A stretch of DNA of 64,000 bases, taken from the IMG/VR virus record IMGVR_UViG_3300027971_004105; one strand, given 5' to 3'. Position 1 is the first letter of the stretch. Every line of letters begins with the position of its first letter. The notes beneath the pieces are model-generated. The model saw nothing but the letters and a program-made list of their open reading frames with translations, was not told where the DNA came from and did not search any database. Below are positions 35,369-53,730 of the stretch, in pieces. A program made the translations under genes and the position numbers. Source of the DNA: a virus (taxonomy: Duplodnaviria; Caudoviricetes).

Positions 35369-35374
35369 TAAATA
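35369..35374 (+). promoter_or_regulatory. TAAATA motif upstream of the Cys-rich cluster
   Basis: Intergenic; SD AAGGA before ATG 35398. Confidence 0.6.
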
Positions 35375-35397
35375 CAAGCAAACATAAGGACTAAAAC

Positions 35398-35730
35398 ATG
35401 GGAAGATACATATCAACAACCGGAACCGCTGGTATAGTTATACGTGAAGTTAGTACAACGTATCAAGCAGTTGTGAATGATAGAATTTTGGCTAACTCTG
35501 CAGCAGCAGCCTTCACTATCACTTTGCCACTGAGCACTGGACTGTTGAACAATGACACCATTCAAATCATAGACGTTGGCAACTTAGCAGGAACCAACAA
35601 CATCACTGTGGCTAGAAACGGTGCACTGATCAACGGAGCAGCTGACAATTTAACAATTGACTTGAATCAAGCAATTGTGACTTTGATTTATACAGGCGTA
35701 ACTTATGGTTGGATTGTTGCCGCAGTGTAA
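35398..35730 (+). CDS. Small fibre-associated protein resembling the T4 gp34 N-terminal repeat domain
   Basis: FTITLP....NDTIQIID...TNNITVARNGALING pattern. Confidence 0.6.
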   Translation: MGRYISTTGTAGIVIREVSTTYQAVVNDRILANSAAAAFTITLPLSTGLLNNDTIQIIDVGNLAGTNNITVARNGALINGAADNLTIDLNQAIVTLIYTGVTYGWIVAAV

Positions 35731-35779
35731 TTGATTTTAATAATCACACAGCATCACAATCTACAAAAGAATTAATAGT

Positions 35780-36751
35780 ATGGCAAGTTTGAAAAACCTT
35801 ACGGCAACCAAGAACAACAACTTTCCACAAGTGACGGAAACCAATGTGGAATCTGGTCAGATATATAATTTTCAAGCCAACAATTTTGAATCACTGCACG
35901 CAGGCATTTGTTTTCATCCCTGTCAATCAGGCACAGCAATAATTGAGATATGGGGCGCAGGTGGCTCTGGAGCCAAAATGTGCTGTTGTGGATTTGGTAC
36001 TCCTGGTAACCCAGGCGCATACAGTAAAAAAACAGTCACTCTCACATGCTGCGGATATATCACAGGATCACCAGGCATAGCCTGCGGCAATGATGCACTG
36101 TGTTTCAGAGGCTGTTCAGATGCCACTGGAGTGACCATTTATGCCAATGGCAGCAGCACAGGTTGTATGTGTGCTCAAGGTGGCCGAGGCGGAATTTCTT
36201 ATTGCAGCACAGGCACAGATGCCTACTGTTGTTTCACAGCAGGCGGTTTTTATACCACTTTGGGAGTGAACGGCAACTGCGGCATAGTGTGCAACAAATG
36301 TTGTTCAGGTGGATGGTGCGCACTGGCATATGGTGGAGACTTCAACTGTCCAGGCGGATTCAGTTGTGTGAGTTTCCTAGGAGCTTCAGGATCATCTTGT
36401 CCATGCAGCACACATTTTCACATGCAAGGACCAGCAGGATATTTTTCCAAATGCGGAGTGGTGGTGAGTTTCAATTCAGATGACGGCAATGGTTTTGCCA
36501 ACTGGTCAGGACAAGGCCGAAGTCAATATTCTCAAGCACTGGCAGGAGCCAGCAGATGGCCTCAGATGGGATCACATTTTGCTACCTGTTGGGGATTTTC
36601 AGGAGCTTGTGGATGTTATGAAAATGAAGGCTGCATGAATCTATTGCCTCCAGGATTTCCGTCGGCAGGACCACATCCATGTCCAGGTGTGAGAGATCAT
36701 GCCAGCAAAGGTGGCAATGGTGCCATCAGAATTAAATTTATAGCAGGATAA
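35780..36751 (+). CDS. Gly/Cys-rich protein 1 (adhesin-like)
   Basis: 323 aa, 30 Cys by hand count; EIWGAGGSGAKMCCCG, CMCAQGGRGG, PCPGVRDH. Confidence 0.75.
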   Translation: MASLKNLTATKNNNFPQVTETNVESGQIYNFQANNFESLHAGICFHPCQSGTAIIEIWGAGGSGAKMCCCGFGTPGNPGAYSKKTVTLTCCGYITGSPGIACGNDALCFRGCSDATGVTIYANGSSTGCMCAQGGRGGISYCSTGTDAYCCFTAGGFYTTLGVNGNCGIVCNKCCSGGWCALAYGGDFNCPGGFSCVSFLGASGSSCPCSTHFHMQGPAGYFSKCGVVVSFNSDDGNGFANWSGQGRSQYSQALAGASRWPQMGSHFATCWGFSGACGCYENEGCMNLLPPGFPSAGPHPCPGVRDHASKGGNGAIRIKFIAG

Positions 36752-36756
36752 ACATT

Positions 36757-37758
36757 ATGGCCACACTGAGATCATTATTAGAAACCAAACTGTCGTTCCA
36801 GTTGAACGGTTTAGAAAGCAACACTGAAGAAGGTAGAATTTGGGCCTACACTCCAGGCACCACAGTGGGCACCAACTTCTGTTGTGGTGTGTGTTGGATA
36901 TCACCAGGCACAGGCACAGCCACCATTGAGATATGGGGTGCAGGTGGTTCTGGAGCCAAAATGTGCTGCTGCGGATTCGGATTGCCTGGCAATCCAGGTG
37001 CTTATTCTTCAAGAACAGTCAACGTCACCATAGGCTGTTGTATCAGAGGCAACGTGGGATTATCCTGCGGTAACTCAGACGATTTATGTTACAGAGGTAG
37101 ATCAGAAAGCACAGGAGTGTGCTGGCAGGGCAATGGCACCAATGGTTGTATGTGTGCAGAAGGTGGTCAAGGTGGCTACAGCTATTGTTCTACCACTCCA
37201 TCAGCCTATTGCTGCTTTGGAGCCAACGGATTTTGCAACACCAAAACCGCTGGTGAAAACTGCGGAATAATTTGCAACTACAGAGGCGCAGGTTGTGCTG
37301 TGCATGAAGCTCAAGGATACGGCGGCACCTGCAACATGGCAGCTGGATTCAGTTGTGTGAGTTTCTTTGGATGCTTGCCATCATGTCCATGTTCATTTTG
37401 GTATCACACCAGAACACCACCCAAGATGTATGCAGACTGTGGAGCATGGATCACCTACACCAATGATGTGGACAATGGAGCCTACAACTGGAGCGGTGGC
37501 GCTCAGTATGGTTACATACACACATTAGGACTTACTTCGCGCAATCCCACCATGGGCGGTCACTATACATCCTGTTGGAGTGGTGGTCATAGATATTGCG
37601 GTTGCTACAACATGAATGGTTGCATAGCATTTGTGCCACCAGGTCATGCAGGAGCACCACCACATCCATGTCCAGATGTGAGAGATCATGCCTACCGAGG
37701 TGGACATGGTATAATTAGGATTAAATACGTGGGAACAGGATATTTGGGGTTAAACTAA
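36757..37758 (+). CDS. Gly/Cys-rich protein 2 (adhesin-like)
   Basis: 333 aa, 31 Cys by hand count; same motifs as 35780. Confidence 0.75.
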   Translation: MATLRSLLETKLSFQLNGLESNTEEGRIWAYTPGTTVGTNFCCGVCWISPGTGTATIEIWGAGGSGAKMCCCGFGLPGNPGAYSSRTVNVTIGCCIRGNVGLSCGNSDDLCYRGRSESTGVCWQGNGTNGCMCAEGGQGGYSYCSTTPSAYCCFGANGFCNTKTAGENCGIICNYRGAGCAVHEAQGYGGTCNMAAGFSCVSFFGCLPSCPCSFWYHTRTPPKMYADCGAWITYTNDVDNGAYNWSGGAQYGYIHTLGLTSRNPTMGGHYTSCWSGGHRYCGCYNMNGCIAFVPPGHAGAPPHPCPDVRDHAYRGGHGIIRIKYVGTGYLGLN

Positions 37759-38720
37759 TGGCTGGATTAAAAAGTATATTATCATCAAAAGTATCATACA
37801 CAATAACTGAGAACAACCTTGAACAGGGTGTGATCTATGCATTCTCACCCGGCACATTCTACACCAATTACTGCAACGGCTTCTGTTGGAAACCACCAGC
37901 CACAGGTTGTGCCATTGTGGAGATATGGGGTGCTGGTGGCTCAGGATCTCGTATGTGTTGTTGTGGTGGAGGACTGCCCGGCAATGCAGGTGGATATTCA
38001 AGAAAAAGCATAGCAGTGACCACTGCCAACTTTGTGTGTGGCTGTGTGGGCTTTCCCAGATATTCTCATGATTTATGTTTTTCAGGTTGCGGTGATCCCA
38101 GCACAGTGTGTTGGACCAGCACTTCTTCCAATGGTTGCTTGTGTGCCAGAGGTGGCCGAGGTGGCACCAGTTTCTGCAGCACTGGTACCAGCATGTTCTG
38201 TTGCTACAGAGCCAACGGATTTTGTAGTTTTGGACCCATCAACGACAACTGCGGCATTGTGTGCAATCATTGTTCAGGTGGTTGGGAATCACTGGCATAC
38301 GGTGGTGACATCAACTGCTGCGGCACCATAGGTTGTACATCATTTTTAGGTTGCTATCCCACATGTCCTTGTCAAACACATCATCATGCTCCTCTGCCAG
38401 CCTACATATTTGCAGAAAAAGGCGCTAGAGTGAGTTTTCAAACATCAGACGGACAAGCCAACACAAGTGGTATGTCAGGCAGTCAGCTGCCTGCTTATCT
38501 ACAATCACTGGCAGCACTCAGCAAACAGCCTACCAGAGGCACTTTCAACTCCTATTGTTGGGTATCAAACAGATCCTGCGGATGTTATGAGATGCAAGGA
38601 TGTTCACCATTTTTACCCATAGGCGCAGGTGGTCTACCTCCACAACCTTGTCCAGATGTGAGAGATCATGGAATCAGAGGCGGCTGGGGTGGCATGCGTA
38701 TCAGATTTATAGCAAGTTAA
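37758..38720 (+). CDS. Gly/Cys-rich protein 3 (adhesin-like)
   Basis: 320 aa, 31 Cys by hand count; same motifs; TAATG coupling to the previous gene. Confidence 0.75.
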   Translation: MAGLKSILSSKVSYTITENNLEQGVIYAFSPGTFYTNYCNGFCWKPPATGCAIVEIWGAGGSGSRMCCCGGGLPGNAGGYSRKSIAVTTANFVCGCVGFPRYSHDLCFSGCGDPSTVCWTSTSSNGCLCARGGRGGTSFCSTGTSMFCCYRANGFCSFGPINDNCGIVCNHCSGGWESLAYGGDINCCGTIGCTSFLGCYPTCPCQTHHHAPLPAYIFAEKGARVSFQTSDGQANTSGMSGSQLPAYLQSLAALSKQPTRGTFNSYCWVSNRSCGCYEMQGCSPFLPIGAGGLPPQPCPDVRDHGIRGGWGGMRIRFIAS

Positions 38721-38733
38721 TATAATATGTTGA

Positions 38734-38748
38734 TAAATACACTAAATA
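38734..38748 (+). promoter_or_regulatory. Tandem TAAATA motifs (38734-38739, 38743-38748)
   Basis: Intergenic; SD GAGGA before ATG 38766. Confidence 0.55.
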
Positions 38749-38765
38749 GCACAGAGGAATAAAAT

Positions 38766-39419: not shown

Positions 39420-39429
39420 TCAAGAATAA

Positions 39430-39459
39430 TTCACAACAAAATCACTGTTGATATATAAT
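39430..39459 (+). promoter_or_regulatory. sigma70-like promoter TTCACA-N18-TATAAT
   Basis: Perfect -10 at 39454-39459, 5/6 -35 at 39430-39435; no TAAATA in this gap. Confidence 0.5.
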
Positions 39460-39490
39460 ACTGTGTGTAAATTCGCACAGTATTACATAT

Positions 39491-40435
39491 ATGAATAGAT
39501 CCAAAGCATTTTTTTTAAACGGAGGTATTGGCCGAATTTTGTGTGCTATTCCTGCACTGGAAAAATACGCAGAAGAATCGGGCGATAAAGATTTTTTAGT
39601 CATTTGCGAAGGAGCTGTGGACATACTCAAAGGTCATCCCATACTGGATCAAAAAACCTACGATATTTTTCATAAAAATTTATTTCATTCTAAATTACAA
39701 TCCAGAGAAATAGTAAGTTTGGAGCCTTATAGAGTTTGGGAATATTACAATCAAAAATGCAATCTATCTCAGGCTTTTGATATATTGATCAACGCCAAAG
39801 GAGTGAGGTCATTGCCCAAACCCACCATCCATCTCAGCAAGGAAGAAACTGCTCAAGGACAAAAATTGATGGAAGAAATCAAAGCAAAAATTAAAAAAGA
39901 TAAAGCCATTGTGTTTCAACCATTTGGCAGAGGCGTAGAGCACATGGATAAAACTCTTTTGGATAAAACTGGACGCAGTTTTGAATACAAAGATGTTAAG
40001 AACTTGATACGAAAACTACAAAAAGAAAACTTTGCAGTGATACTGATGTCAGAATTTGGCATGGATCTTAAGGATCAAAAATACACAGATGATGTGGCCA
40101 TGCCCGAAGGATTGAATCTAAGAGTGTGGACAGCACTGATCAAACAAGCTGATCATTTCTTAGGCTGTGACAGTGTGGGTCAGCACTTGGCCTACATAGT
40201 AGGCACCACTTCCACTGTGGTATTGGGACCTACCTATCCCGTCAATACCACTTATCCCGATTGTGACTATTTTAACATAATGGATATGGGAGAAATAGAT
40301 AGGGAGTATGATCCAATTAGAATCACCATGGACGAAAGAATTGCTAGAAAAAATGAAATATTGATGTCTATGAACGAAGAGATTGAAGACTATGTGATCA
40401 ACGGAGTAATGAGAAGAAATCAAGATGACAAGTAA
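39491..40435 (+). CDS. GT9-like (heptosyltransferase-like, GT-B) glycosyltransferase 1
   Basis: N-terminal NGGIGRILC (cf. GIGD motif), IVFQPFG, C-terminal DHFLGCDSVGQHLA..VG...TVVLGPT. Confidence 0.65.
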   Translation: MNRSKAFFLNGGIGRILCAIPALEKYAEESGDKDFLVICEGAVDILKGHPILDQKTYDIFHKNLFHSKLQSREIVSLEPYRVWEYYNQKCNLSQAFDILINAKGVRSLPKPTIHLSKEETAQGQKLMEEIKAKIKKDKAIVFQPFGRGVEHMDKTLLDKTGRSFEYKDVKNLIRKLQKENFAVILMSEFGMDLKDQKYTDDVAMPEGLNLRVWTALIKQADHFLGCDSVGQHLAYIVGTTSTVVLGPTYPVNTTYPDCDYFNIMDMGEIDREYDPIRITMDERIARKNEILMSMNEEIEDYVINGVMRRNQDDK

Positions 40436-42239
40436 GCCTTCAGGTTATATTGCTGCCATTGCTAGAGGACACAATGCCGGAGTGTGTTTGTTAAAAGATG
40501 GCAACGTTGTTTTTTCCATAGAAGAAGAAAGATTAAGTAGACAAAAATATGATGGCGGACCTTATGCCAGCATGATGGAAATATTAAAATACACTGACAA
40601 AATAGATTATTTGATTGTGGCTCACACACAAAAACTCAAAGACACAGCAGGCAAAGTGGATTTTACAGGTGATGACGTGTACACTGGACTGGCACGTAAA
40701 ATGGGATTGATTGATAGAACAGCTGATCCTCACAACCATCCTCAAGTGATTGATCTCAGTCACATACATCACAAATTACATGCTGCATGTGCTTTTTACA
40801 GATCTGGTTGGGAAAGTGCTGTGTCGGTGATTGTAGATGGTGCTGGAACATTCATTGGCATTAATAATAATATTCAAGGACAGACCACTGTTTGGGAAGT
40901 GGAATCAATTATAAATTGTGCATATCCTTCAAACTTTCATTCATTGTACAAACATTATGCCACTCGTGATGCTATGATTGGTGCAATATTAAAAAATTTT
41001 CCTTCGGACATTACTGACGAAGCTGGTAAAACTCACGAAGCAATATTCAGTGACAGAGCCGGCATAGTAAAAGTATACGAAGCTGTGACACAATATTGTG
41101 GATTCCAAGCAATTGAAGCAGGCAAAACCATGGGATTATTTCCCTATGGCAAACCCAATGATAAAATTCCGCAATTATTTGAAACTGAAGGAAAATCACC
41201 TTTGTCCAATAGAAATTTAATTGTACCAACCTACCCTAGTGCAGCGTTAGTGAACGCTCTTATTTTTGATTATCTGGAAGATGAAATAGGAAAATCTCAT
41301 GATGATGTAACATTATTACAAAATCGTAGAGATTTGGCTTATGCTTGCCAAACACAAACTCAAGAACAAGTTTTAAAATTAATTCGTAAAGCAGTGTCCA
41401 TGAGCAACAATAAGAGAGTGGTGTTGTCAGGAGGATATGGATTAAATTGTGTGGCCAACTATTATTATTTAGAACATTTGAAAGAAGAAGGAATTGAACT
41501 GTATGTGGAACCAACTTCCAACGATGCTGGCACAGCAATGGGTGCAGCATTGATGTTCTATCATCAGATATTTGCTGACAAAACTCCAAAAGTGCATAAC
41601 ACATTATACTTGGGTCCTATAAGAGAATACACATTGGCAGACATTGAAAAAAGAGCCAGCATCAGTGAAAATAAAAATGTTAAAATAACAGATGCCACAC
41701 ACAAAGATATAGTAAAACTTTTAAAATCAAAAAATATAGTGGCCATGTTCCAAGGTAGATCAGAAAACGGTCCTAGAGCATTGGGCAATAGATCCATATT
41801 GTTTGACCCAACATTCAAAGATGGCAAAGATTTTGTAAATCTAGTTAAAAAGAGAGAATACTTCCGTCCATTTGCTGGAACTATATTGCAAGATGATGTG
41901 CATGAATGGTTTGATTTGCGTGGCATGAAAGATTCTCCGTTTATGATGTATGCTGTGAATTGTCAACCAGGTGTTGAAGAAAAAATTCCTGCAATTATTC
42001 ATGTGGATGGCACTTGTAGAATACAAACAGTTACTGAAGAACAAAATAAACATTATTATGATTTAATTAAAACATTCAAAGATGAAACAGGTATACCTAT
42101 ATTATTCAATACTTCATTTAATTTGGGTGGTGAACCTTTGGTTGAAACTTTGGATGATGCATTTAGAACTCTAGAAAATTCCAAAATTGAATATCTATAC
42201 TTGCCCGAGCATAAAAAATTAATACACATGCCGAATTAA
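40425..42239 (+). CDS. O-carbamoyltransferase, NodU/CmcH/TobZ family
   Basis: HNAG..L.KDG, EEERLSRQKY, HHKLHAACAF, DGAG, EAGKTMGL, LSGGYGLNCVAN, DAGTAMG, ENGPRALGNRS, REYFRPFA, HVDGTCRIQTV, NTSFNLGGEP. Confidence 0.93.
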   Translation: MTSKPSGYIAAIARGHNAGVCLLKDGNVVFSIEEERLSRQKYDGGPYASMMEILKYTDKIDYLIVAHTQKLKDTAGKVDFTGDDVYTGLARKMGLIDRTADPHNHPQVIDLSHIHHKLHAACAFYRSGWESAVSVIVDGAGTFIGINNNIQGQTTVWEVESIINCAYPSNFHSLYKHYATRDAMIGAILKNFPSDITDEAGKTHEAIFSDRAGIVKVYEAVTQYCGFQAIEAGKTMGLFPYGKPNDKIPQLFETEGKSPLSNRNLIVPTYPSAALVNALIFDYLEDEIGKSHDDVTLLQNRRDLAYACQTQTQEQVLKLIRKAVSMSNNKRVVLSGGYGLNCVANYYYLEHLKEEGIELYVEPTSNDAGTAMGAALMFYHQIFADKTPKVHNTLYLGPIREYTLADIEKRASISENKNVKITDATHKDIVKLLKSKNIVAMFQGRSENGPRALGNRSILFDPTFKDGKDFVNLVKKREYFRPFAGTILQDDVHEWFDLRGMKDSPFMMYAVNCQPGVEEKIPAIIHVDGTCRIQTVTEEQNKHYYDLIKTFKDETGIPILFNTSFNLGGEPLVETLDDAFRTLENSKIEYLYLPEHKKLIHMPN

Positions 42240-42240
42240 T

Positions 42241-43191
42241 ATGAACAAAGCATTTTTTATTAACGGAGGAGCAGGTAGAACATTGTGTTCAGTGCCAGCA
42301 CTAGAAAATTATGCCAACGATAATCCCAATGATGATTTTATTATTGTGTGTGAAGGTGGCACTGATTTCTACAAAGGACATCCTAAATTACATTTTAGAG
42401 CGTATGATGTTTGGCACAAGAATCTATTCAATGAATACTTAAAAGATAGACAACTGATAACTCCTGAACCATACAGGGTTTGGGAATACTACAATCAAAA
42501 ATGTAATATTGCACAAGCATATGACATAGAGATTAATGGCAAAGGACTACGCACATTAGAAAAACCCAAAATTTATCTTTCCAAAGAAGAACTGATCATG
42601 GCAAGACAGATGATTAAAGAAATAAAAGAAACCACTAAAAAAGAAAAAATAGTAGTGTTTCAACCTTTTGGTAGAGTATCTAAAAAAGACAACGATAGTT
42701 TTATAGATGTGAGTGGTAGAAGTTTTGAATTGGAAAACATTATCAATCTAATTAGACAGTTGGGCAAACAATATGCTGTGATGGTGATGTCAGAATTTCC
42801 CATAGATTTTAGTAAACATCAGATAAATTTTCCAGTGGCTGTGCCTCAGAATATACATATAAGAATTTGGAGTGCTGTGATAAAAATGTGTGATCATTTC
42901 TTAGGCTGTGACAGTTTGGGCCAACATCTTGCACATGCTTTTGACAAAACAGCCACAGTGGTATTTGGTTCAACATTTCCCAATAATGTTTCTTATCCAG
43001 ACAATAATAAATTTGATATCATTGACATGAACAAAGACAGTAGAATTTACAGTCCTATACGCATAACCATGGATGAATATGCTGACAGAGCCAATGAAGA
43101 TGCTATGAAAATGGACAAAGAAGTGGAAAATAGAATTATGCAATCTGTCAACAGCATGATCAAACACGGCTACAAAAAGAATAAAAAATAA
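42241..43191 (+). CDS. GT9-like glycosyltransferase 2, paralogue of 39491
   Basis: NGGAGRTLC, EPYRVWEYYNQKCN shared with 39491, DHFLGCDSLGQHLA. Confidence 0.65.
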   Translation: MNKAFFINGGAGRTLCSVPALENYANDNPNDDFIIVCEGGTDFYKGHPKLHFRAYDVWHKNLFNEYLKDRQLITPEPYRVWEYYNQKCNIAQAYDIEINGKGLRTLEKPKIYLSKEELIMARQMIKEIKETTKKEKIVVFQPFGRVSKKDNDSFIDVSGRSFELENIINLIRQLGKQYAVMVMSEFPIDFSKHQINFPVAVPQNIHIRIWSAVIKMCDHFLGCDSLGQHLAHAFDKTATVVFGSTFPNNVSYPDNNKFDIIDMNKDSRIYSPIRITMDEYADRANEDAMKMDKEVENRIMQSVNSMIKHGYKKNKK

Positions 43192-43204
43192 AATTATTTT
43201 AAGG

Positions 43205-43215: not shown

Positions 43216-43632
43216 ATGTTCAATGTAAACAACTTGTTTGGCAAGGGTGTAAAGAATACTCTACTGTTAAAAAATGGTTTAAATTTTTCAGTGGGAGGTC
43301 CTTTTACCAGTGTGCAAACAGACACATTAATAGATAGATGGCAATTCACATCTGTATCAGCTGCTGAGTACACCATGATGGTGGACTATGATACCAACAA
43401 CAAAGAAATTATAAGATGTTTGCTGGTGGGTGGACCAAACGCTGCCACAGTGACCATATATGGTCGTGGAAATCTTGGCAATGAATTAATCACCCTTACT
43501 GCCACTGTAAACGATTCATATGTGGAGTTACGAGCCACTGCTGCACAAGGTGCTGACAGCACCATATACTATGGTTCTAAATGCATCTTCCAAGCCACCT
43601 ATTTCGAAACTCTTAATCCTATCACACGTTAA
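43216..43632 (+). CDS. Hypothetical beta-rich virion-associated protein, 138 aa
   Basis: Intact ORF after a late motif. Confidence 0.6.
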   Translation: MFNVNNLFGKGVKNTLLLKNGLNFSVGGPFTSVQTDTLIDRWQFTSVSAAEYTMMVDYDTNNKEIIRCLLVGGPNAATVTIYGRGNLGNELITLTATVNDSYVELRATAAQGADSTIYYGSKCIFQATYFETLNPITR

Positions 43633-44421: not shown

Positions 44422-47400
44422 ATGGCTAAAAAACAGTTAAAAAATTTTATATTTGAACCAGGTATTGGCAAGGATGATGGTCTATATCCCAATGCTGCCA
44501 CACTGGTACTGGCCAACAAAGCATTTTTACAACAACAGGTTGTAGCATACATCAACTACAACATCGCCAACAGCATTGCACCTTATGTGGGATATACCTA
44601 CGCTTCACAAAAATGTATCAGAGACGTGGGGTATTTCATAGACGCAGTCACACACGATTTAAGATATGGTGGCAATGTTAAATGTCGTCAGGTGGCAGAT
44701 TATTTTTGGATAGACGGAGAACCTCAGATCCGAGGTGATGTCACACCAGAGACCACTGGACAGGCCTATCTGCGTGATATTATCAATCAATTCATACTGA
44801 CCAAAACACCAGTCACTCCCACCTACGGCAATACCACACCTCAGGTATTCACTGCAGGCATCAGCACAGAGAGTGATGCTGCCACTGCCAACATAGTGTT
44901 GTGGAATATTTTCAGCACAGTGATCACCAACGGTCCCAGTGCAATGCCAGCCAAGGTACCAGGTGTGTCTTCCATCAGAGTGATTGGACAGATTGATCCC
45001 GCCAGCATATTATTGATTACTGATGTGGATTCAGGAAATATCTTATACAGTTTTGCTGATCCTGCCAATAGTATTTCTGTGACCTATAAACAAGGACGCA
45101 GCAGCGGCGACGGCAATTTATTAAGTGATTTGGATTGGCCCACTTGGTGGCAGACCAGTGATTCAATCACCACCATAGACTTGAGTGCTGATACCAGCAC
45201 ACTCACTGTGGATTCTAATATACAATTTTTTGTGGAAGAAGCTGCACAAACAATCAGACCTTGGGAATTCGGCACAGATGCCATTGAACGTATGCGTGTG
45301 GCAGCGCCTCAGGCCATGTTGGATGCTGACTTTGAATATGGATTACAACCAACCAAATGGCAGGCTCTGGGCACTTTGAGAATGTATCCTTCCACATATG
45401 AAGTACCTGGCAGCGATCTGACTGTGTTGAGTTGTGTTACTGATGCATCAGTGAACACTGGATTTTTTGGTAGTTCATTGATCACTGTGACCACTTCAGG
45501 AGTGCATGGATTCACAGTGGGTCAACCCATTTCTGTGAAAGGATTAAACAGCACTGTGTCAGGATTTGCCAGAGCAGAAGGATCTTTTTTAGTGTACAGT
45601 GTGCCTAGTTCTGTGAGTTTCACTTACTATGCCAGTGCTAGAGTAGGCACCAGCAACGAACAAAGTTTGTTGACTTCATTCATACAGATACGTCAAGCAC
45701 AATTTTTCACAGGTGCTTCCATAGGTCAGCCCAGTTTTTCAGTGTTCACCAATGGTACCACACTCAGCATAGTCACTGCATTATTGGCCACCACAGGAGC
45801 CACGTCATTTGTTTACATCGGATCAGCACCTACTGTGGGTTCACCCATAACAGGTCCTGCAGAAATTCCAGTGGGCACCAGTGTGTCAGGCACAGTGGGC
45901 GCTGCTTCTGTGACCACCAATGTGTTATTGAACACTCTGGTCACTGACACTCAAATTAGTTTGACCAATCTCACTGGCATACAAACCAGCATGGCTTTGG
46001 ACGTGGGCGGCACAGCATCCACCATCAACACCATAGTGGGCAGTGCATTATCATTGAGCAATCAATTGGGCGTGGCATACAAAGGTAGAGATGGTGTCAA
46101 CAATGCTGTGACTGGCACTCTCACTGCTCCAGTAGGAGTAGGTGCACAATTTAATGTGACTCGCAGTGCTGGAGTATACACTTTGGTTCAAACTCCAGGA
46201 GCATCACCCACACCATTCAACTATCAAAAAGGTGACAGATTAAAAATATTAGGCACCAGTTTGGGTGGCGCTACACCAGCCAATGACGTTAATATTTTAA
46301 TCACTGCCGCAGGCACTGGTGGTGACATAGACTCATTCACATTCACAGGCACTTCCATCTTGGGCGGTGCCACTTACCTCAACATAGGACACACCGGTTA
46401 CACCGGCAGCACAGGCAGTGGATTTCAAATCAATGTCACCAGAACAGGTGGCACAGGCACATATTCTATCAGCTCAGTAGCAGCAGGCACTGGTTATGTT
46501 GTGACTGAACAGGTCACATTTGCAGGCACTCTTTTTGGTGGCACATCACCAGCCAATGACATTGTGTTGGAAATAGCTTCTGTGACTGGCACAGGCGATG
46601 TATTAACTTTCACACCAGTGGGCTCACCAGTGGGGTCATCAGGAGATGTCACTTATTCAGGCACACCAGCTCCCAACGTGTCACACTTGGGCAATGGAGC
46701 AGAATTTAACATAACCAGAAGCAATGGAGCATATTCAGTCACACTGAACAATGCAGGCACATTGTATGAAGAAGGCAACACAGTTGCAGTATCGGGCACC
46801 ACACTGAATGGTGCTACTCCAACCAACGATGCCACCATTGAAATCACAGGAGTCACAGGAGGAGTCATAGACACAATCACCATCAGTGGAGTGGGTTATG
46901 CAGGTGATTCCATCACAGTGTATCCTACAGTGAGCATCAGTGAACCCATCACTGGCAACATCGCTGCTGGCACAGCTCTAAACGTGGGAGCCATTGCCAC
47001 TGTACAAGTGGATTTTCAAGCTCCACACGGATTGGTTCCAGGCACCACCATATTGAGTCAGGTCACTTCGCAACCTGCACCAGAATTAGCATCCACAGCT
47101 AGAACCATCACAGGCAGCGGCACATGGTCTGTGGCTGCTCTGGGTGGAACTTTTGTGGCAGTGAGATCCGGTGCCACAGCCACACAGAGATCCACCAACG
47201 GACAAACTTGGGCAGCAGGCGGAGCATTGGATTCAACAGCTTCATGGATTTCCGTGGCAGCTGGCAGAGTGAGTGGCGTTGATTATTTTGTGGTTATAGC
47301 TTCTGGCAGCACTTCTGCTGCTTGGTCTGTGAACAGTGGACAGAGTTGGACTGCTGCTGCTCTACCCAGCGGCGCCAACTGGAGCAAAGTGGCCTATGGT

Positions 47401-50400
47401 GACGGTGTATTTGTGGCTGTGTCCACAGGTGGCACTGCTGCTGCCTACAGCACTGATGGTGGAGCCAATTGGTCAGCCAGCACACTGCCCAGCAGCGGCA
47501 CATGGACCGGCGTAGCCTCAGGTTTGATAGGAACTTCCACATATTTTGTAGCAGTGGCTTCAGGCGGCACGGTGGCTGCATATTCACCAGACTATGGAGT
47601 CAACTGGATTGCCACAGGAGCACTGCCAGCCTCAGCCACATGGAGTGCTGTGAGTTACGGCAACAACAGGTTTGTGGCCATCAGCTCCGGCAGTACCAAT
47701 GCAGCATTTTCCACCAATGGAACCACTTGGACACTGAGCACTCTGCCCAGCAGCACCACATGGAATGAAATAATTTACGGCGATGACGTATTTTTAATCA
47801 CTGCCACAGGCACCACATCAGCTCTCACTTCATTCACTGGTGAAACAGGATCATTCACTGCAAGAACTTTGGCCACTTCATCCACTTGGGATTCTTTGGC
47901 TTACACTTATTACACTGGTCAAGGATTTGGAAGATTTGTGCTCACTGATCAATCAACCACTGCATTGGAAATCAATCTCACTTCAGCCAATCACCAGTTG
48001 GGCACAGGACCACACGTGGTATCTTCAGTGCCCAGCCCAGCTACCATAAGATTTGTGGCCAGAACCACAGGCATCATCAATATCTCCGGCAGTTCTATCA
48101 CAGGAGTGGTGTATGCCAGACCAGACAGTTTCTTTGTGCATAGACCATTTGATGGTGGAGTACAGTTGGGCACAGGTAACCCCAGCCATGGTGCACAGGC
48201 CATCAGACAGAGCAAGAAATATATCAGATATCAATCAGGCAAAGGCATCATGTACACCACTGGAGGATTATTTGCTCCCAGTTACAATTTGTCAGGAGCC
48301 ACAGCATCTGGCACAGCAGTGAACAGTTTGATCACATTCACAGCAGATGACACAGATCACGGAGTGCAGGCAGGCTGTGTGATAGAAACCATAGGATTTG
48401 TGAGTTTTGAATACAATGGAGAATTCACTGTGGAGAGTGTGATAGATGCACGCAGTTTCACTGCCAGATCAGCAGTGGTATTGAGCACCACCACAGCACT
48501 GTTGGGCACTGAATGCAAAATGCTTATCAAATATTGGCATGGTTCAACTGTGCGTATAGGTGCATTTGATGAACAGAACGGAATATTCTATCAGTATGAT
48601 GGCGAAGAGATGGCAGTGGTGCGCAGAAGCAGCACCAATCAATTGACAGGTACCATTGCTGTGAACACAGACAGCAATCAAATCACTGGCACAGGCACAA
48701 GATTTCAAGATCAATTAAAAGTAGGAGATAAGATTGTAATCAGAGGCATGAGTCATTTGGTGACTCAATTGAATTCTCAAACAGCCATGACAGTGGCTCC
48801 AGACTGGCGAGGTGCCAACAGTATTGTGGGAGCCCGAGTGTGTATCACTGAAGAATTATATGTGCCACAGAGTCAATGGAATTTGGACAAATTGGATGGC
48901 ACAGGACCCAGCGGATATAATCTACTACCATGGCGCATGCAGATGTTGGGCATGCAGTATTCATGGTATGCAGCAGGATTCATTGAATGGATGCTGCGAG
49001 GAGCTGACGGAAAATTTGTGTTCTTACACAAGATAAGAAATTCCAATACCAACACCGAAGCTTACATGCGTACTGCCAACTTGCCTGTGAGATATGAAGT
49101 GGAAAATCGTTCAGCATTGAGTGAATTATACTCTGCAGTGAATTCTTCTCAAACCACCATAGAATTAGTTGATGCTCGTAGATTTCCTGACAATGGTGTA
49201 ATTTACGTAGGCAATGAATTGATATCATACAATGGAAAATCAGGCAGATCTTTGACTGGATGTACCCGATCAGCTTCATTTGGTTCATTCACTTCTGGAA
49301 TCAACAGAGTATACACAGGTGGCACAGCATCATCATATTCCGTGGGCACTGGAGTCACATTGGTCAGTTGCACAGCCACTCCCACTATCAGTCACTGGGG
49401 GTCAGCGTTGCTCACTGATGGTTTATTTGATGAAGACCGAGGATACATTTTTAACTATGCTGCCACAGGATTGAGTGTGAGCACTGCCAAACAGACTGCC
49501 TTTATGATCAGATTGGCTCCATCTGTTTCCAATGCATTGGTGGGAGATTTGGGTGAAAGAGATTTATTAAACAGAGCACAATTGTTATTGAATGAAGTGG
49601 CAGTGACCACTGACACAGGCTCAGGCACTGTGGTTATAGAAGGAGTATTGAATCCAAGAAATTATCCTGCCAATCCATCCAACATCACTTGGACAGGTCT
49701 GGCCAGCTCTGCTGCAGGAGGTCAACCAAGTTTTGCGCAGATAGCACTGGGGGGTTCTATCAACTGGGGAGGTGTGCCACTGACCACCACCACTGCTACC
49801 ATACAAGGAGCACTGACCACCACTGTGAATGCTAGAGGATTCTCCACTGTCACACAGAACTTGACAGCCATTGCCAACTCAGGATTTAGAACTCGTTCGT
49901 TTCAAACCACCTCCAATGATTTTTATATCACCAACACAGCTTATGATGCATTAACCAGTACTCCTTTGAGAGTGGGTGACAGACTGTCAGAGGGTACTTT
50001 TGTCACTGCAGGACAGAGTATTTCCAATATTACTCGTGCATATTTGGGGAGTATATACACCAGAATTGAAATGAGTTCTGCTGCCAACGGCAACAGTACT
50101 ATTGGTGTCAACGTGACCATCAGTGTGCAGAACAGTATCTCAACCAACTATGCCAGCGCCTATGTGAATGGCAGAACAGATTTTTTAATCACTAACGCAG
50201 AAGCAACATCTTCCAACATCACAGTGGGTGATGTATTGCTGGTCTCCACTTTTGTGATCAGCAGTCAGACAGTGGCCACCATCACCAGTTCATATGCCAC
50301 GGTCAGCGGAGTAGCTTACACACGCATAGTGATGAGCAGTGCAGCCAATGCCACTCAGGCAGTGAACACCGCCACTGCTACCACAGTCACAGCTGCCGGC

Positions 50401-50862
50401 ACAGGAGCAACTTACACAGGTAACTTCATATTCTTCACACAGGCCACTTGGAACAACTCGGGCGCTTCCAATGGTACCAGAGTGGCCACTTCATTCACAC
50501 AATTTCCAGCCAACACTTCTGTGAGTGCTGTGAGCAATAGAAGATTGGGCAGCACCACTGTGATCAGAGCCACGTTCACACAGACACTGGCCACTTTGGT
50601 GTCAGCTGCAGGCACAGTGACCTTCCAGTTTGGCGATCCACAGTTTGCACTGCCAGGTGAACAGGTGTTTTCATTCTTGTTGCAACCAGGAGCATTGGCT
50701 GCTTTGAGTTTGAAAGAATTAAAAGAGTTAACCACCACTGCCATAGGTGGCAGAGGCACGTTCCCCAATGGTCCAGACGTGTTGGCCATCAATATCTACA
50801 AGATATCAGGCTCAGCAGTGAATGGATCTGTTATTTTGCGATGGGGTGAAGCTCAGGCGTAA
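44422..50862 (+). CDS. Very large virion structural protein with BNR/propeller-like repeats
   Basis: 2146 aa Thr/Ser/Gly-rich; W..VAYG.G.FVAV repeats at about 47100-47950; TAAATA at 44389-44394. Confidence 0.7.
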   Translation: MAKKQLKNFIFEPGIGKDDGLYPNAATLVLANKAFLQQQVVAYINYNIANSIAPYVGYTYASQKCIRDVGYFIDAVTHDLRYGGNVKCRQVADYFWIDGEPQIRGDVTPETTGQAYLRDIINQFILTKTPVTPTYGNTTPQVFTAGISTESDAATANIVLWNIFSTVITNGPSAMPAKVPGVSSIRVIGQIDPASILLITDVDSGNILYSFADPANSISVTYKQGRSSGDGNLLSDLDWPTWWQTSDSITTIDLSADTSTLTVDSNIQFFVEEAAQTIRPWEFGTDAIERMRVAAPQAMLDADFEYGLQPTKWQALGTLRMYPSTYEVPGSDLTVLSCVTDASVNTGFFGSSLITVTTSGVHGFTVGQPISVKGLNSTVSGFARAEGSFLVYSVPSSVSFTYYASARVGTSNEQSLLTSFIQIRQAQFFTGASIGQPSFSVFTNGTTLSIVTALLATTGATSFVYIGSAPTVGSPITGPAEIPVGTSVSGTVGAASVTTNVLLNTLVTDTQISLTNLTGIQTSMALDVGGTASTINTIVGSALSLSNQLGVAYKGRDGVNNAVTGTLTAPVGVGAQFNVTRSAGVYTLVQTPGASPTPFNYQKGDRLKILGTSLGGATPANDVNILITAAGTGGDIDSFTFTGTSILGGATYLNIGHTGYTGSTGSGFQINVTRTGGTGTYSISSVAAGTGYVVTEQVTFAGTLFGGTSPANDIVLEIASVTGTGDVLTFTPVGSPVGSSGDVTYSGTPAPNVSHLGNGAEFNITRSNGAYSVTLNNAGTLYEEGNTVAVSGTTLNGATPTNDATIEITGVTGGVIDTITISGVGYAGDSITVYPTVSISEPITGNIAAGTALNVGAIATVQVDFQAPHGLVPGTTILSQVTSQPAPELASTARTITGSGTWSVAALGGTFVAVRSGATATQRSTNGQTWAAGGALDSTASWISVAAGRVSGVDYFVVIASGSTSAAWSVNSGQSWTAAALPSGANWSKVAYGDGVFVAVSTGGTAAAYSTDGGANWSASTLPSSGTWTGVASGLIGTSTYFVAVASGGTVAAYSPDYGVNWIATGALPASATWSAVSYGNNRFVAISSGSTNAAFSTNGTTWTLSTLPSSTTWNEIIYGDDVFLITATGTTSALTSFTGETGSFTARTLATSSTWDSLAYTYYTGQGFGRFVLTDQSTTALEINLTSANHQLGTGPHVVSSVPSPATIRFVARTTGIINISGSSITGVVYARPDSFFVHRPFDGGVQLGTGNPSHGAQAIRQSKKYIRYQSGKGIMYTTGGLFAPSYNLSGATASGTAVNSLITFTADDTDHGVQAGCVIETIGFVSFEYNGEFTVESVIDARSFTARSAVVLSTTTALLGTECKMLIKYWHGSTVRIGAFDEQNGIFYQYDGEEMAVVRRSSTNQLTGTIAVNTDSNQITGTGTRFQDQLKVGDKIVIRGMSHLVTQLNSQTAMTVAPDWRGANSIVGARVCITEELYVPQSQWNLDKLDGTGPSGYNLLPWRMQMLGMQYSWYAAGFIEWMLRGADGKFVFLHKIRNSNTNTEAYMRTANLPVRYEVENRSALSELYSAVNSSQTTIELVDARRFPDNGVIYVGNELISYNGKSGRSLTGCTRSASFGSFTSGINRVYTGGTASSYSVGTGVTLVSCTATPTISHWGSALLTDGLFDEDRGYIFNYAATGLSVSTAKQTAFMIRLAPSVSNALVGDLGERDLLNRAQLLLNEVAVTTDTGSGTVVIEGVLNPRNYPANPSNITWTGLASSAAGGQPSFAQIALGGSINWGGVPLTTTTATIQGALTTTVNARGFSTVTQNLTAIANSGFRTRSFQTTSNDFYITNTAYDALTSTPLRVGDRLSEGTFVTAGQSISNITRAYLGSIYTRIEMSSAANGNSTIGVNVTISVQNSISTNYASAYVNGRTDFLITNAEATSSNITVGDVLLVSTFVISSQTVATITSSYATVSGVAYTRIVMSSAANATQAVNTATATTVTAAGTGATYTGNFIFFTQATWNNSGASNGTRVATSFTQFPANTSVSAVSNRRLGSTTVIRATFTQTLATLVSAAGTVTFQFGDPQFALPGEQVFSFLLQPGALAALSLKELKELTTTAIGGRGTFPNGPDVLAINIYKISGSAVNGSVILRWGEAQA

Positions 50863-51235
50863 CAGTTTTTTGACTGTCACCAGGCACTATTCTATAATTG
50901 TCTTCCACGCTGTCTGCAGTGGAAACTTCTGTGATTGAACTGTTGTCCAACACAGCTTCCAATTGATGAGGTTGTAGAGGAGGATTGTGCCAAGTTTGAC
51001 CTTCGCTTAATTCCTTCTGATATATTTTAGCATCCTTGGTGTCTATCCAACGCACTAAAAATTTTCCAGAATTCACAAACCAAGTTTCCTCTTTGTGTTT
51101 GTGAAAATGCAGTGAACACTTGTTGCCTGCTTTGGTAAACACTAAAATTTTTCCACAGTAATTGTCATTGGTGGCCCATATTAATTCATAACCCCAACCT
51201 TTGTCTATTTTGCCTTCTTGTCTATTCACGGTCAT
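50831..51235 (-). CDS. Cupin resembling the type II phosphomannose isomerase C-terminal domain
   Basis: KGWG..., SLHFHKHKEETWFVNSG, H motif in PLQPHQL. Confidence 0.7.
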   Translation of the reverse strand: MTVNRQEGKIDKGWGYELIWATNDNYCGKILVFTKAGNKCSLHFHKHKEETWFVNSGKFLVRWIDTKDAKIYQKELSEGQTWHNPPLQPHQLEAVLDNSSITEVSTADSVEDNYRIVPGDSQKTVTPELHPIAK

Positions 51236-52049
51236 TGCGAATATATTCCTCTATGGTTTTGTATTGGATGTTCACATGAGTATTTAAAAGAGTTGTGTCA
51301 GCACAGGTATAAGTTTGATACTGTGCTTTTAATTGTGTTGGCATGGGCACTAATTCTATACGAGCATTGTATTTTTTGGCAATTATTTCTGCTACTTCAG
51401 CAAAACTTGTGGGTGTTCCTGTGCCCACATTAAAAATACCACTCACATCTTTGGTCAACATTTGTTCATGCACATCACAAACATCATCCACGCACACAAA
51501 ATCTCTCAGATATTTTTCACTATTTTCAAAAAGTTTAATTACTCCTGCTTGTTGAGCTTGTTGAATAAATTTTGAAATGGGCGATGCTTGGTTGCCTTTG
51601 TGTTCTTCATGTGCTCCATACACATTAAAATATCTAAATCCTTGCACTGATATGTTGTATTCACTGTAAGGAACAGATTTAATCATTCTATCAAACAAAA
51701 ATTTACTCCAAGCATAAGCACTCAATGGAGACATGGCAGCATCTTCTTTGAAATTTTTTGTTAGACCATACACACTGGCTGAGCTGGCGTATTGAAAATT
51801 AATACCCATCATATCACACAGGTACAATAATTTACAACTGAAATCAAAATTTTGAATCATTATTTTTTCCACATCTGTTTCTGTGGTGCTGCTGATAGCA
51901 CCCAAGTGTATCACTTGATCGTGTTTGGTTACATCTGGCATCACATCAGGAATATAATCATATCCTTCCACTGTGTGTCCTTTGTTCACAAGATGTTTGA
52001 ATAGATTTTGACCGATAAATCCTTTGTGTCCTGTGATTAATATTCTCAT
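51222..52049 (-). CDS. hldD: ADP-L-glycero-D-manno-heptose 6-epimerase-like extended SDR
   Basis: GHKGFIG, HLGAISSTTE, YASSASVYG, YAWSK, RYFNVYG.HEEHKG, RDFVCVDDV. Confidence 0.8.
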   Translation of the reverse strand: MRILITGHKGFIGQNLFKHLVNKGHTVEGYDYIPDVMPDVTKHDQVIHLGAISSTTETDVEKIMIQNFDFSCKLLYLCDMMGINFQYASSASVYGLTKNFKEDAAMSPLSAYAWSKFLFDRMIKSVPYSEYNISVQGFRYFNVYGAHEEHKGNQASPISKFIQQAQQAGVIKLFENSEKYLRDFVCVDDVCDVHEQMLTKDVSGIFNVGTGTPTSFAEVAEIIAKKYNARIELVPMPTQLKAQYQTYTCADTTLLNTHVNIQYKTIEEYIRNDRE

Positions 52050-53296
52050 GATTGTAATCTATCTATAATTTTTGTGGTGGAAAATCCTTCCACGGTGGGA
52101 AATATAATCACTCGTGCCAACTCATTGCCTACTGTGGTGGACACTGTGTAATCTCCACCTTTGACAATAATGTCTGGTTTAATTTCTTCTATGATTCTTT
52201 GTGGAGTATCTTCTGTGAATAGCACTACTTCGTCCACCCAAGGCAACATTTCCAATTGACGTTTTCTTGTGGCATAATCATTCACTGGTCTGCCTTCACC
52301 TTTTAATCTACGCACACTGGCATCATCGTTGATGCCTACTATTAACTTTTTACCTTGATTCCTAGCAAACTTTAATAATTCCAAATGTCCTGTGTGTAAT
52401 ATATCAAACACTCCATTGGTCCATACTGTGCCTTTGTTCAAATCTTCTTTGGTGACAGGCACAACACCAAACTTTTCCACATTTCTTGCTGCAGCATAGC
52501 ATGCCAATTCACAAGCACGTGGCACAGTCATGCCTTGTTTGATACCATATGCTATCACGGCCAACACAGTATCACCTGCTCCGGTGACATCTGCCACTTC
52601 TCTCACGGGTTCTTTCACATGTGAGTACGATCCTTCTTTGGAAATGATATGAATACCTTTAGCTCCATCAGTGATTATAAGCCATGTCCAACTGTGTGTT
52701 TGAGCAAATTTCACAGCTGAATCCACATCAAAAGTGCCATTCCATGATTCATATTCTTTCATGTTGGGCTTAACTAAAAATGCTCCATCATAATAATCAG
52801 CAGATTGTTTGGGATCTACCAACACCCATTGAGTTTTTTCTAAAATGTTTTTTACTGTGTGAGATTTAATAACTCCTTTGGCATAATCACTGATTAATAC
52901 CATACTTTTTTCTGTGAGAGAAAATAACAGTTGAGATAAACAACTATCTTTGATGTATTGTTTTTCTCTATCCCAACGCAGTATGTGTTGCCCTCTTTGT
53001 TCAACCAATCTTATTTTTGTTGTGGTAATAGGAGCATCTTCTGCTATGGATAAAAATACATTGCTGTTTTTTAATAAGTTTACTAAACTGTAACCGTCTG
53101 TGTCTTTGCCCACTGCTCCATACAATTGTACATCATTGTGAATGGCAGCCATATTCACTGCTAAATTAGCAGCACCACCTGGAGAAACTTTTTGATTTTG
53201 TTCTAATAAAATAGGAATGGGTGCTTCAGGTGACATGCGATCAGCAGTGCCCACGATCCAACGATCCAGCATGATATCACCAAGTATTTTGATCAT
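52046..53296 (-). CDS. hldE: Bifunctional heptose-7-phosphate kinase / heptose-1-phosphate adenylyltransferase
   Basis: GDIMLD....RMSPEAPIP, PGGAANLA, SDYAKG, KPN..E, DVTGAGDT, then TNGVFDILHTGH, GINDDASVRRLKG..RP, KGGDY, STT. Confidence 0.92.
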   Translation of the reverse strand: MIKILGDIMLDRWIVGTADRMSPEAPIPILLEQNQKVSPGGAANLAVNMAAIHNDVQLYGAVGKDTDGYSLVNLLKNSNVFLSIAEDAPITTTKIRLVEQRGQHILRWDREKQYIKDSCLSQLLFSLTEKSMVLISDYAKGVIKSHTVKNILEKTQWVLVDPKQSADYYDGAFLVKPNMKEYESWNGTFDVDSAVKFAQTHSWTWLIITDGAKGIHIISKEGSYSHVKEPVREVADVTGAGDTVLAVIAYGIKQGMTVPRACELACYAAARNVEKFGVVPVTKEDLNKGTVWTNGVFDILHTGHLELLKFARNQGKKLIVGINDDASVRRLKGEGRPVNDYATRKRQLEMLPWVDEVVLFTEDTPQRIIEEIKPDIIVKGGDYTVSTTVGNELARVIIFPTVEGFSTTKIIDRLQS

Positions 53297-53730
53297 TATA
53301 GAAATTTTAACATCTTAAAAACTGTTTCCAGTTTTATTTGATTATTTTTGTTTTGTAATGTATTTCTCAATCCTTGATGTAAAGGTTTGGGCCATTTGCC
53401 AAATATTACCCAAGCGTAGCCATCGTGTTCTTCATTTAATTTAGGGATAAACTCATTTTTTACCACACACAGATAGGTATGATATAAAAAGTTTTCATCA
53501 TTGCTCACAAACGTTTCTAAAGGTATAGTTTTGGTAATATTTACAGAACCAATTTCTTCACTGATTTCTCTTTTGAGCGATTCCCAAGGTGTTTCGCTTG
53601 CAATATTCTTGCCGCCCACTAATCCCCACACGTTGGATTGTTTGCTTTGAGTTCTGTGTAAAAACAAAAATCTTTTGGTGTCTAGATTATAGAACAAGGC
53701 TCCGCAGCCAATTATTTTCTTATTGGTCAT
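53296..53730 (-). CDS. Nudix hydrolase
   Basis: Nudix box G-KNIAS-E-TPWESLK-REISEEIG; LNEEHDGYAW. Confidence 0.85.
   Translation of the reverse strand: MTNKKIIGCGALFYNLDTKRFLFLHRTQSKQSNVWGLVGGKNIASETPWESLKREISEEIGSVNITKTIPLETFVSNDENFLYHTYLCVVKNEFIPKLNEEHDGYAWVIFGKWPKPLHQGLRNTLQNKNNQIKLETVFKMLKFL

Follow-up and report, generated by a model that had tools for sequence, protein, structure and literature searches.

A 64,000-nt stretch of viral DNA (Duplodnaviria; Caudoviricetes), IMG/VR record IMGVR_UViG_3300027971_004105 and hereafter the window, was analyzed with regard to a set of sugar genes that a first-pass annotation, made from the letters alone, had read as an ADP-heptose supply linked to two heptosyltransferase-like enzymes and an O-carbamoyltransferase inside a tail-fibre cluster. 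Open reading frame (ORF) listing and family scans confirmed both parts of this set, namely a glycosyltransferase (GT)-like/carbamoyltransferase/GT-like trio at 39491–43191 on the plus strand and hldE and hldD with a cupin and a Nudix gene at 50831–53730 on the minus strand. The proposed start of the system at 35369 is not a gene boundary, as the nearest gene begins at 35398. The genes of the two groups are:

39491..40435, plus strand: GT-like A, 314 aa, phrog_8954 (E 4.5e-136; Pfam GT9 E 0.0028)
40425..42239, plus strand: O-carbamoyltransferase of the NodU/TobZ/NovN/GdmN type, 604 aa (Carbam_trans_C E 3.6e-59, Carbam_trans_N E 2.7e-24)
42241..43191, plus strand: GT-like B, 316 aa, phrog_8954 (GT9 fold in the AlphaFold2 model)
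50831..51235, minus strand: cupin, homologue of T4-GC307 (Cupin_2 E 1.5e-5; weak matches to mannose-6-phosphate isomerase and WbuC models)
51222..52049, minus strand: compact HldD-like ADP-glycero-manno-heptose 6-epimerase, 275 aa (TIGR02197 E 4.2e-71)
52046..53296, minus strand: HldE-like fused heptose-7-phosphate kinase/heptose-1-phosphate adenylyltransferase, 416 aa (PRK11316 E 2e-105)
53296..53730, minus strand: Nudix hydrolase (NUDIX E 6e-14; Nudix box intact)

GT-like A and B share 51% identity and both belong to phrog_8954, which carries the PHROG label 'unknown function'. GT-like A scored 17.5 bits against Pfam GT9 (PF01075), under the 22-bit cut-off, and the GT9-family model TIGR02201 gave E 0.0017 and 17.5 bits against a cut-off of 170 bits. 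A Pfam scan of GT-like B returned no match, and PDB sequence searches, whether started from GT-like A, GT-like B or the family profile, returned no GT9 or other relevant match. Among the comparisons with solved structures, the resemblance to GT9 was seen by fold only, when an AlphaFold2 model of GT-like B (predicted local distance difference test score, pLDDT, 85.3) was compared with the PDB using Foldseek. The top matches were the Veillonella GT9 enzyme 3tov (E 4.8e-11), WaaC (3.6e-8), WaaF (7e-7) and TibC (2.4e-6; template modelling score 0.45–0.57), and plant NDH subunits were also found among the matches. As this comparison put GT9 enzymes first, the GT9-like nature that had been proposed for both genes was upheld.

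Profile alignment placed the donor motif D224-S-x-G-x-H229 of GT-like B on V-D261-T-G-L-S-H of WaaC. The motif D-S/T-x-G-x-H was conserved across 84 diverse family members, with D224 kept in 99%, S225 in 96% and H229 in 99% of them. G12-R13 of GT-like B paired with G12-D13 of WaaC, where the Asp is the catalytic base; hhalign gave this alignment a low probability, and its register is supported by a P-A-L motif. The canonical GT9 catalytic Asp is lacking, as the position of the WaaC catalytic Asp is occupied by Arg or Lys in 82 of the 84 members. The N-terminal (acceptor) domains of the GT-like proteins are not basic, with isoelectric points (pI) of 5.4–8.7 versus 9.8 for WaaC/WaaF. The phrog_8954 family thus has the fold and the donor site of GT9, yet is not a canonical GT9 family. 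Because the canonical catalytic Asp is replaced, ADP-heptose is put forward here as the presumed donor and glycosyl transfer as the presumed mechanism; what points to this donor is, indirectly, the company of HldE and HldD in 7 of 7 cyanophage species with the GT.

The stop codon of GT-like A and the start of the carbamoyltransferase overlap by 11 nt, and since the three genes of the trio overlap or abut, translational coupling of GT-like A, the carbamoyltransferase and GT-like B is suggested. In the carbamoyltransferase a Kae1-like N-terminal and a YrdC-like C-terminal domain were both found above the Pfam cut-offs (86.7 bits versus 24 and 199.6 bits versus 27, respectively). Its sequence matches in the PDB were 7xb6 (E 8e-53), NovN, GdmN and TobZ (E 3.5e-40), and it is 65% identical to gp121 of S-SSM7.

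The GT family comprised 3402 proteins in 90% clusters, with 438 representatives at 50% identity, and was present in at least 572 IMG/VR stretches. Gene neighbourhoods were counted in the best 80 IMG/VR loci, which are mutually related, so that the counts are not counts of independent events. The GT and carbamoyltransferase genes were neighbours in 79 of these 80 loci and likewise in cyanophage isolates, which bears out their treatment as one unit. Two mutually exclusive architectures were observed, GT-carbamoyltransferase-GT as in the window (21 loci) and GT-X-carbamoyltransferase (49 loci). Protein X (L011:10923-12712, L035:10984-11814) has 276–298 aa and an N-terminal SGNH/GDSL-like FGCS(F/Y)T motif, and gave no Pfam match; it may be an O-acyl esterase or transferase that acts on the same glycan as the GT unit. 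In one lineage a carbon-nitrogen hydrolase (nitrilase/amidase superfamily, E 1.8e-8; L011:9129-9962) was seen directly upstream of the GT, a family that includes N-carbamoyl amidases.

Among cyanophage isolates the GT is carried by S-CAM1, S-CAM3, Sf-FS3, S-SSM6a, S-SSM7, P-SSM2 and P-SSM5. All seven of these species also carry split HldE genes and HldD, and in all seven the GT adjoins the carbamoyltransferase (checked in P-SSM2, S-SSM7, S-CAM1 and S-CAM3). The orthogroup of the latter (at least 44% identity) was found among cyanophages in GT carriers only. An Aeromonas phage and N4-like vibriophages carry distant GT homologues (~25% identity). The homologue of vibriophage SBP1 has tail-fibre genes on one side and tail genes on the other, and no genes for sugar supply near it, an arrangement that would fit hosts making their own ADP-heptose. 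SBP1 gp063 (L086:6989-7723, 244 aa) and gp50 of Aeromonas phage HJ05 (L085:7001-7924) keep G-G-x-G-R and D-S/T...H; the neighbours of HJ05 gp50 are all annotated as hypothetical.

On the minus strand the window runs gp15, Nudix, HldE, HldD and cupin with overlaps or gaps of no more than 13 nt, and the same arrangement was found in a 268-kb relative (G002; CheckV completeness 75%). The HldE-like protein also matched TIGR02198 (E 8e-70) and TIGR02199 (E 4e-44), its scores of 353, 235 and 150 bits lying under the respective equivalog cut-offs of 521, 345 and 181.5 bits. It has the domain order kinase to adenylyltransferase (PfkB at residues 21–279, cytidylyltransferase-like at 292–390), keeps the GAGD and HxGH motifs and matches the solved HldA structure 4e84 through its kinase domain (E 5e-35). 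It is a divergent viral form, its substrate specificity being presumed from sequence. The HldD-like protein reached 239.7 bits with TIGR02197 (cut-off 274.6), with GalE far behind at 7e-24. It retains the GxxGxxG and YxxxK motifs of short-chain dehydrogenases/reductases and is 43–48% identical to the epimerases of P-SSM2 and S-SSM7. With their strongest matches to ADP-heptose equivalog models and to the HldA structure, and with intact motifs, HldE and HldD are, judged by sequence, genuine relatives of ADP-heptose enzymes, as the first-pass annotation had held. With 36% identity in one piece, the fused HldE is closer to Salmonella RfaE than it is to the split genes of the cyanophages (~30%, in two pieces), which suggests that it was captured independently of the cyanophage versions. 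The 418-aa frames in G002 and in G006 are likewise single fused HldE proteins in the bacterial order; the cyanophage isolates have two genes in reversed order.

The cupin is conserved beside HldD in all lineages. Its AlphaFold2 model (pLDDT 86.5) had D-lyxose isomerase 7nzp as the best Foldseek match (E 1.8e-8), and its best structural matches were isomerases of the D-lyxose/mannose type; phosphomannose isomerase (7zvy), the CapF cupin, oxalate decarboxylases and generic cupins were also among the hits. GmhA catalyses the seven-carbon counterpart of what phosphomannose isomerase does. Because of this analogy and the isomerase-like structural matches, the cupin is proposed as a candidate sugar-phosphate isomerase that may replace GmhA. 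The database label cysteine dioxygenase was considered for the cupin and rejected, as such structures match it no better than sugar isomerases do and its context is that of a sugar pathway. No homologue of the cyanophage 'GmhA' ('phosphoheptose isomerase') was found in the window by tblastn. The cyanophage proteins so annotated, T4-GC306 of P-SSM2 (L002:24312-24656) and gp130 of S-SSM7 (L001:19055-19390), gave no SIS/GmhA signal, and the former had only weak HAD-phosphatase-like matches (LNS2 E 0.025, HAD_PNKP E 0.079). Where present, GC306 may be a GmhB-type phosphatase and not an isomerase.

The Nudix gene had been counted as part of the pathway, a role that was rejected because of its synteny with gp15. 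Because the gp15-Nudix adjacency persists in PA5oct-like phages and in several loci that have no HldE/HldD, Nudix is probably a companion of gp15 and not a member of the sugar pathway. In the 268-kb relative the gene string continues into two 2-oxoglutarate (2OG)-Fe(II) oxygenase-like genes (L084:11035-12184), the second matching PF13759 at E 1.3e-18, and 2OG oxygenases were also seen beside the epimerase in S-SSM7 and P-SSM2.

Both groups of genes lie within an array of tail-fibre and virion genes, and the transferase trio is co-directional with the fibre genes that flank it. The remaining features are:

28984-35004: tail fibre, 2006 aa (tail-fibre PHROG matches)
35780..38720, plus strand: three Cys-rich, Gly-rich paralogues with an MCCCG motif, candidate fibre-tip proteins (Cys 9.3–9.7%; weak phrog_4205 match)
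39430..39490, plus strand: intergenic leader before GT-like A, with a sigma-70-like promoter (TTCACA, 18 nt, TATAAT) followed by a short hairpin
43216..43632, plus strand: p138, a small protein (in 72 of the 80 loci; adjoins the GT even if inverted)
43677..44387, plus strand: p236, a Ser/Thr-rich (24.6%) protein, fibre-like by composition (in 42 of the 80 loci)
44422..50862, plus strand: virion structural/fibre protein, 2146 aa (phrog_5838 'virion structural protein' E 1e-224; Ser+Thr 23.8%)
53744..55204, minus strand: gp15-like tail sheath stabiliser (T4-gp15_tss E 6.5e-26), heading the leftward string with the heptose genes

The matches of the 2006-aa protein to tail-fibre PHROGs and of the 2146-aa protein to a virion structural PHROG substantiate the tail-fibre context claimed at first pass. 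The gene for the 2146-aa protein separates the transferase genes from the heptose operon, and two small fibre-like proteins are also found among the surrounding structural genes. As in a host recognition cluster (HRC), a variable island of fibre and sugar genes lies between large structural/fibre genes and neck genes. The Cys-rich paralogues form a tandem of 320–333 aa proteins with 30–31 Cys each, 16–18% Gly and the motif WGAGGSG..MCCCG. The Cys-rich trio was present in all 20 GT-carbamoyltransferase-GT loci that have an upstream flank, and among the sampled loci it was seen almost only with this duplicated-GT architecture. Pfam and PHROG searches gave no family match for p236 and no match for p138. 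Relatives of p138 in the Atlas are viral only, and a p138 profile gave no match in the loci of P-SSM2, S-SSM7, the Aeromonas phage or the Vibrio phage; p138 travels with the GT-carbamoyltransferase unit and is specific to the jumbo-phage lineage.

A cyanomyovirus identity was rejected on the grounds of gp15 kinship and occurrence in freshwater metagenomes. The closest full-length kin of the gp15-like protein are the jumbo myoviruses Phosso, PA5oct and Atu_ph07. At 486 aa it is about twice the length of the Pfam domain, and its full length is common only to these three. The affiliation of the phage is given by this protein rather than by the cyanophage-like sugar genes. The cyanophage marker psbA was not found in five large related contigs, which are fragments and hence weak evidence on the host, and window DNA was present in freshwater metagenomes of many studies. 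Because of the gp15 kin, the lack of psbA in the related contigs and the freshwater occurrence, the carrier is taken to be a freshwater jumbo myovirus of the PA5oct/Atu_ph07 type and not a cyanomyovirus.

The promoter-like sequence in the leader of GT-like A was the best in the scan, matching 11 of 12 positions. Promoter-like sites are not enriched in the window (62 versus 51 +/- 9 expected). A -10-like element, ATAAGTAAT or TATATAAT, is kept in relatives at the same distance from the GT start. The hairpin ACTGTGTG...CACAGT stands before the start codon (window 39420-39490). The T4 late promoter TATAAATA occurred once in the 64 kb, which is chance level, and the CAAGAAT element before GT-like A had no second copy in the window. 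Contigs from four lake-water RNA libraries matched parts of GT-like A, the carbamoyltransferase, cupin/HldD and HldE, some of them free of mismatches; such contigs are no proof of transcription, strand or level, DNA carry-over is possible and parts left uncovered carry no meaning.

A homologous cassette has been published as 'LPS genes', i.e. genes for lipopolysaccharide (LPS), in cyanophages (Sullivan et al. 2005, PMC1079782; Sullivan et al. 2010, PMC3037559). The later study noted the co-occurrence of the heptose genes GC304, 305, 307 and 308 and asked whether the 'LPS genes' were mere stuffer DNA (Sullivan et al. 2010, PMC3037559). Compared by tblastn with T4-GC302-308 of P-SSM2 and S-SSM7, the window shows identities of 47–52% for the GT-like proteins, 47–65% for the carbamoyltransferase, 43–48% for the epimerase, 38% for the cupin and 27–39% for the kinase and adenylyltransferase. 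The cassette occupies the same place, beside tail-fibre genes and before neck genes, and is also found in S-CAM1, S-CAM3, Sf-FS3, S-SSM6a and P-SSM5. The specific linkage that had been taken as novel is thus already visible in P-SSM2 and S-SSM7. The window differs in that the GT is duplicated around the carbamoyltransferase, which is not so in the cyanophages, and in that HldE is fused and of bacterial type whereas cyanophage HldE is two split genes in reverse order. It further has no GC306 homologue, a 6.4-kb fibre gene parts its transferases from its supply genes, and its carrier is a freshwater jumbo myovirus. In published records GC302 is 'hypothetical' and is not labelled GT9-like.

The HRC of pelagimyophages and cyanomyophages (Zaragoza-Solas et al. 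2020, PMC7029224) is similar in being a hypervariable island between fibre/VrlC-like and neck genes that holds fibres, glycosyltransferases and sugar-nucleotide genes including rfaE. Its enzymes are mainly of the GT8 type and were read as modifiers of the host O-chain, however, and the GT9-like and carbamoyltransferase unit was not described there; the phage of the window belongs to a separate jumbo lineage. The only documented carbamoylated heptose is HepII (7-O-carbamoyl) of the Pseudomonas LPS core, for which WapO (PA5005) is the putative transferase (PMC8005017). That system likewise combines GT9-fold transferases (WaaC, WaaF), a NodU-family carbamoyltransferase and an ADP-heptose supply. 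In that system, by contrast, heptose is added to Kdo2-lipid A at the inner membrane. Neither the catalytic Asp nor a basic acceptor domain is present in the phage GTs, and the phage cluster has no heptose kinases or other core genes.

Precedents for modification of proteins differ from the window in other respects. TibC and AAH (BAHT) heptosylate proteins, namely the autotransporter adhesins of E. coli, to whose Ser residues they attach heptose from ADP-heptose; their GT-B fold is related to that of GT9. TibC is an iron-containing dodecamer according to PDB titles, whereas the phage family has no conserved Cys cluster and the phage GT has Arg in place of the catalytic acid. Freeman et al. 2023 (cited in PMC12801897) reportedly found that phage-encoded GTs near structural genes glycosylate capsid and tail proteins of mycobacteriophages. 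GTs near structural genes that decorate the virion are the working model here as well; the GT families, sugars, hosts and morphotype all differ. We know of no sugar-nucleotide supply genes and no carbamoylation in the mycobacteriophage case.

From the observed gene identities, folds, conserved linkage and position we infer a donor, an order of steps, a role for the cupin and, above all, an acceptor. In the proposed scheme the cupin would probably perform the isomerase step that is carried out by GmhA in bacteria, and a host phosphatase would probably perform the GmhB step. The two paralogous GT9-fold transferases, with Arg at the position of the WaaC catalytic Asp, would then add heptose to the acceptor, and the TobZ/NodU-type enzyme would cap a sugar hydroxyl with carbamoyl, comparable to the 7-O-carbamoyl-heptose of the Pseudomonas LPS core. 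The acceptor would be a Ser/Thr-rich fibre or fibre-tip protein of the phage itself, and the glycans so placed on the virion surface would tune receptor binding or shield it. Late heptosylation and O-carbamoylation of a virion fibre protein is our best guess, and a tentative one. A virion acceptor is favoured by the location of the transferase genes, which lie inside fibre arrays in each of three unrelated phage lineages, and by the compact string in which gp15 is followed by the heptose genes. The non-basic acceptor domains, the loss of the LPS-type catalytic Asp and the precedents of protein heptosylation (TibC/AAH) and mycobacteriophage virion glycosylation count on the same side. More doubtful is the general form of the proposal, in which phrog_8954/T4-GC302 would represent a novel Arg-type GT9 branch that O-heptosylates tail fibres and that, with its obligate carbamoyltransferase, puts carbamoyl-heptose on the virions of aquatic phages, those with hosts lacking ADP-heptose bringing a supply of their own with the cupin in place of GmhA. 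In this form the system would extend over at least 572 viral contigs, among them those of cyanophages and jumbo phages and perhaps of N4-like vibriophages.

Several results weigh against heptosylation of the virion. At position 13 the family has Arg in 79, Lys in 3 and Asp in none of the 84 members, and with Arg in place of the GT9 catalytic Asp the proteins are putative transferases with a putative donor. The precedent for protein heptosylation, TibC, is a weaker structural match than 3tov and the LPS enzymes WaaC/WaaF, and because no Cys is conserved family-wide (none in columns of at least 85% among the 84 members), a TibC-type iron finger is absent from phrog_8954. Neither GmhA (PF13580, TIGR00441) nor GmhB (TIGR00213) was matched in P-SSM2, S-SSM7 or the 268-kb relative, which served as a genome-wide proxy for the phage of the window, so that the pathway as encoded has gaps which the cupin and enzymes of the host would have to close. 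The expected co-occurrence with hldE/hldD, which held in the seven GT-bearing cyanophage species, is not universal. A 223-kb relative contig has the GT unit and lacks HldD/HldE, some loci run gp15-Nudix-GT directly with no heptose genes, and S-T4, Sf-CH5/8, S-SM2 and P-TIM68 have heptose genes and no phrog_8954 GT. No partner protein is common across the lineages, p138 being lineage-limited. The predicted sigma-70-like promoter before GT-like A could mean early expression by the host polymerase and not a late expression shared with the fibres.

Such expression would also suit a rival in which the chemistry is the same and the acceptor is a host envelope glycan (LPS core or O-chain), the product blocking superinfection or the re-adsorption of progeny to lysing cells. 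In print, the homologous genes of cyanophages and pelagiphages have been read in favour of host LPS/O-chain modification (PMC1079782, PMC7029224; also PMC3037559), and the sole documented carbamoyl-heptose sits in an LPS core (PMC8005017). The closest solved folds, moreover, are the LPS heptosyltransferases WaaC/WaaF and a GT9 whose acceptor is unidentified. An LPS acceptor is nevertheless disfavoured because the LPS-type catalytic Asp is replaced and, weakly, because the acceptor domains do not share the basic character of WaaC/WaaF. The genes lie in the fibre arrays of unrelated lineages and not among early or host-takeover genes, and the cluster showed no flippase, no ligase and no partner that would anchor to a membrane. 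Marine picocyanobacterial LPS is also reported to be without heptose and Kdo, in which case the cells infected by the cyanophage carriers may offer no canonical core acceptors. We consider a host envelope acceptor somewhat unlikely in itself, though nearly as likely as the virion acceptor.

The replaced Asp can also be taken to mean that the GT-like proteins are not heptosyltransferases at all, but use another donor or are non-catalytic sugar-nucleotide-binding or fibre-assembly factors, with HldE, HldD and the cupin unrelated and brought into proximity by plasticity of the cluster. Neither protein reaches the cut-offs of Pfam or NCBIfam, the homologue from vibriophage is short (244 aa), heptose genes and GT are each found alone in some phages, and GT9-fold proteins with no known transferase role exist, namely the plant NDH subunits returned by Foldseek. 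A near-invariant donor motif over 84 members would be hard to explain for a non-enzyme, however, HldE and HldD accompany the GT in every GT-bearing cyanophage isolate, and the presence of a sugar O-carbamoyltransferase in the same unit in 79 of the 80 loci implies a sugar product. This explanation is judged quite unlikely. Hypermodification of phage DNA, with heptosyl or carbamoyl on a modified base for evasion of restriction, had been listed as an option at first pass; general precedents for it are phage enzymes of the GT-B type that act on DNA and base modifications of the carbamoyl type. We know of no precedent for ADP-heptose as a donor for DNA. The genes stand in a structural/fibre array and not with replication or nucleotide-metabolism genes, and no hydroxymethylase or base-modifying partner is nearby. 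Position and partners make a DNA target unlikely, and we give it hardly any weight.

The gene set itself is real and widespread, and has been in public genomes since 2005, mislabelled 'LPS genes' in cyanophages. What is new is the identification of GC302/phrog_8954 as a predicted Arg-type GT9-fold enzyme, the near-obligate pairing of this GT with one carbamoyltransferase orthogroup and the extension of this pairing to jumbo phages, the variant in the window with its duplicated GT and fused HldE, and the reassignment of Nudix, cupin and GC306. The 'LPS genes' of large cyanophages have gone unexplained since 2005, and the present analysis gives them a concrete and testable form. As culturable carriers exist (P-SSM2, S-SSM7 and S-CAM1), glycosylation of the virion and remodelling of the host surface can be decided between. 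If the target is the virion, phage glycosylation would extend to abundant aquatic myoviruses and a new sugar chemistry would enter into host recognition.

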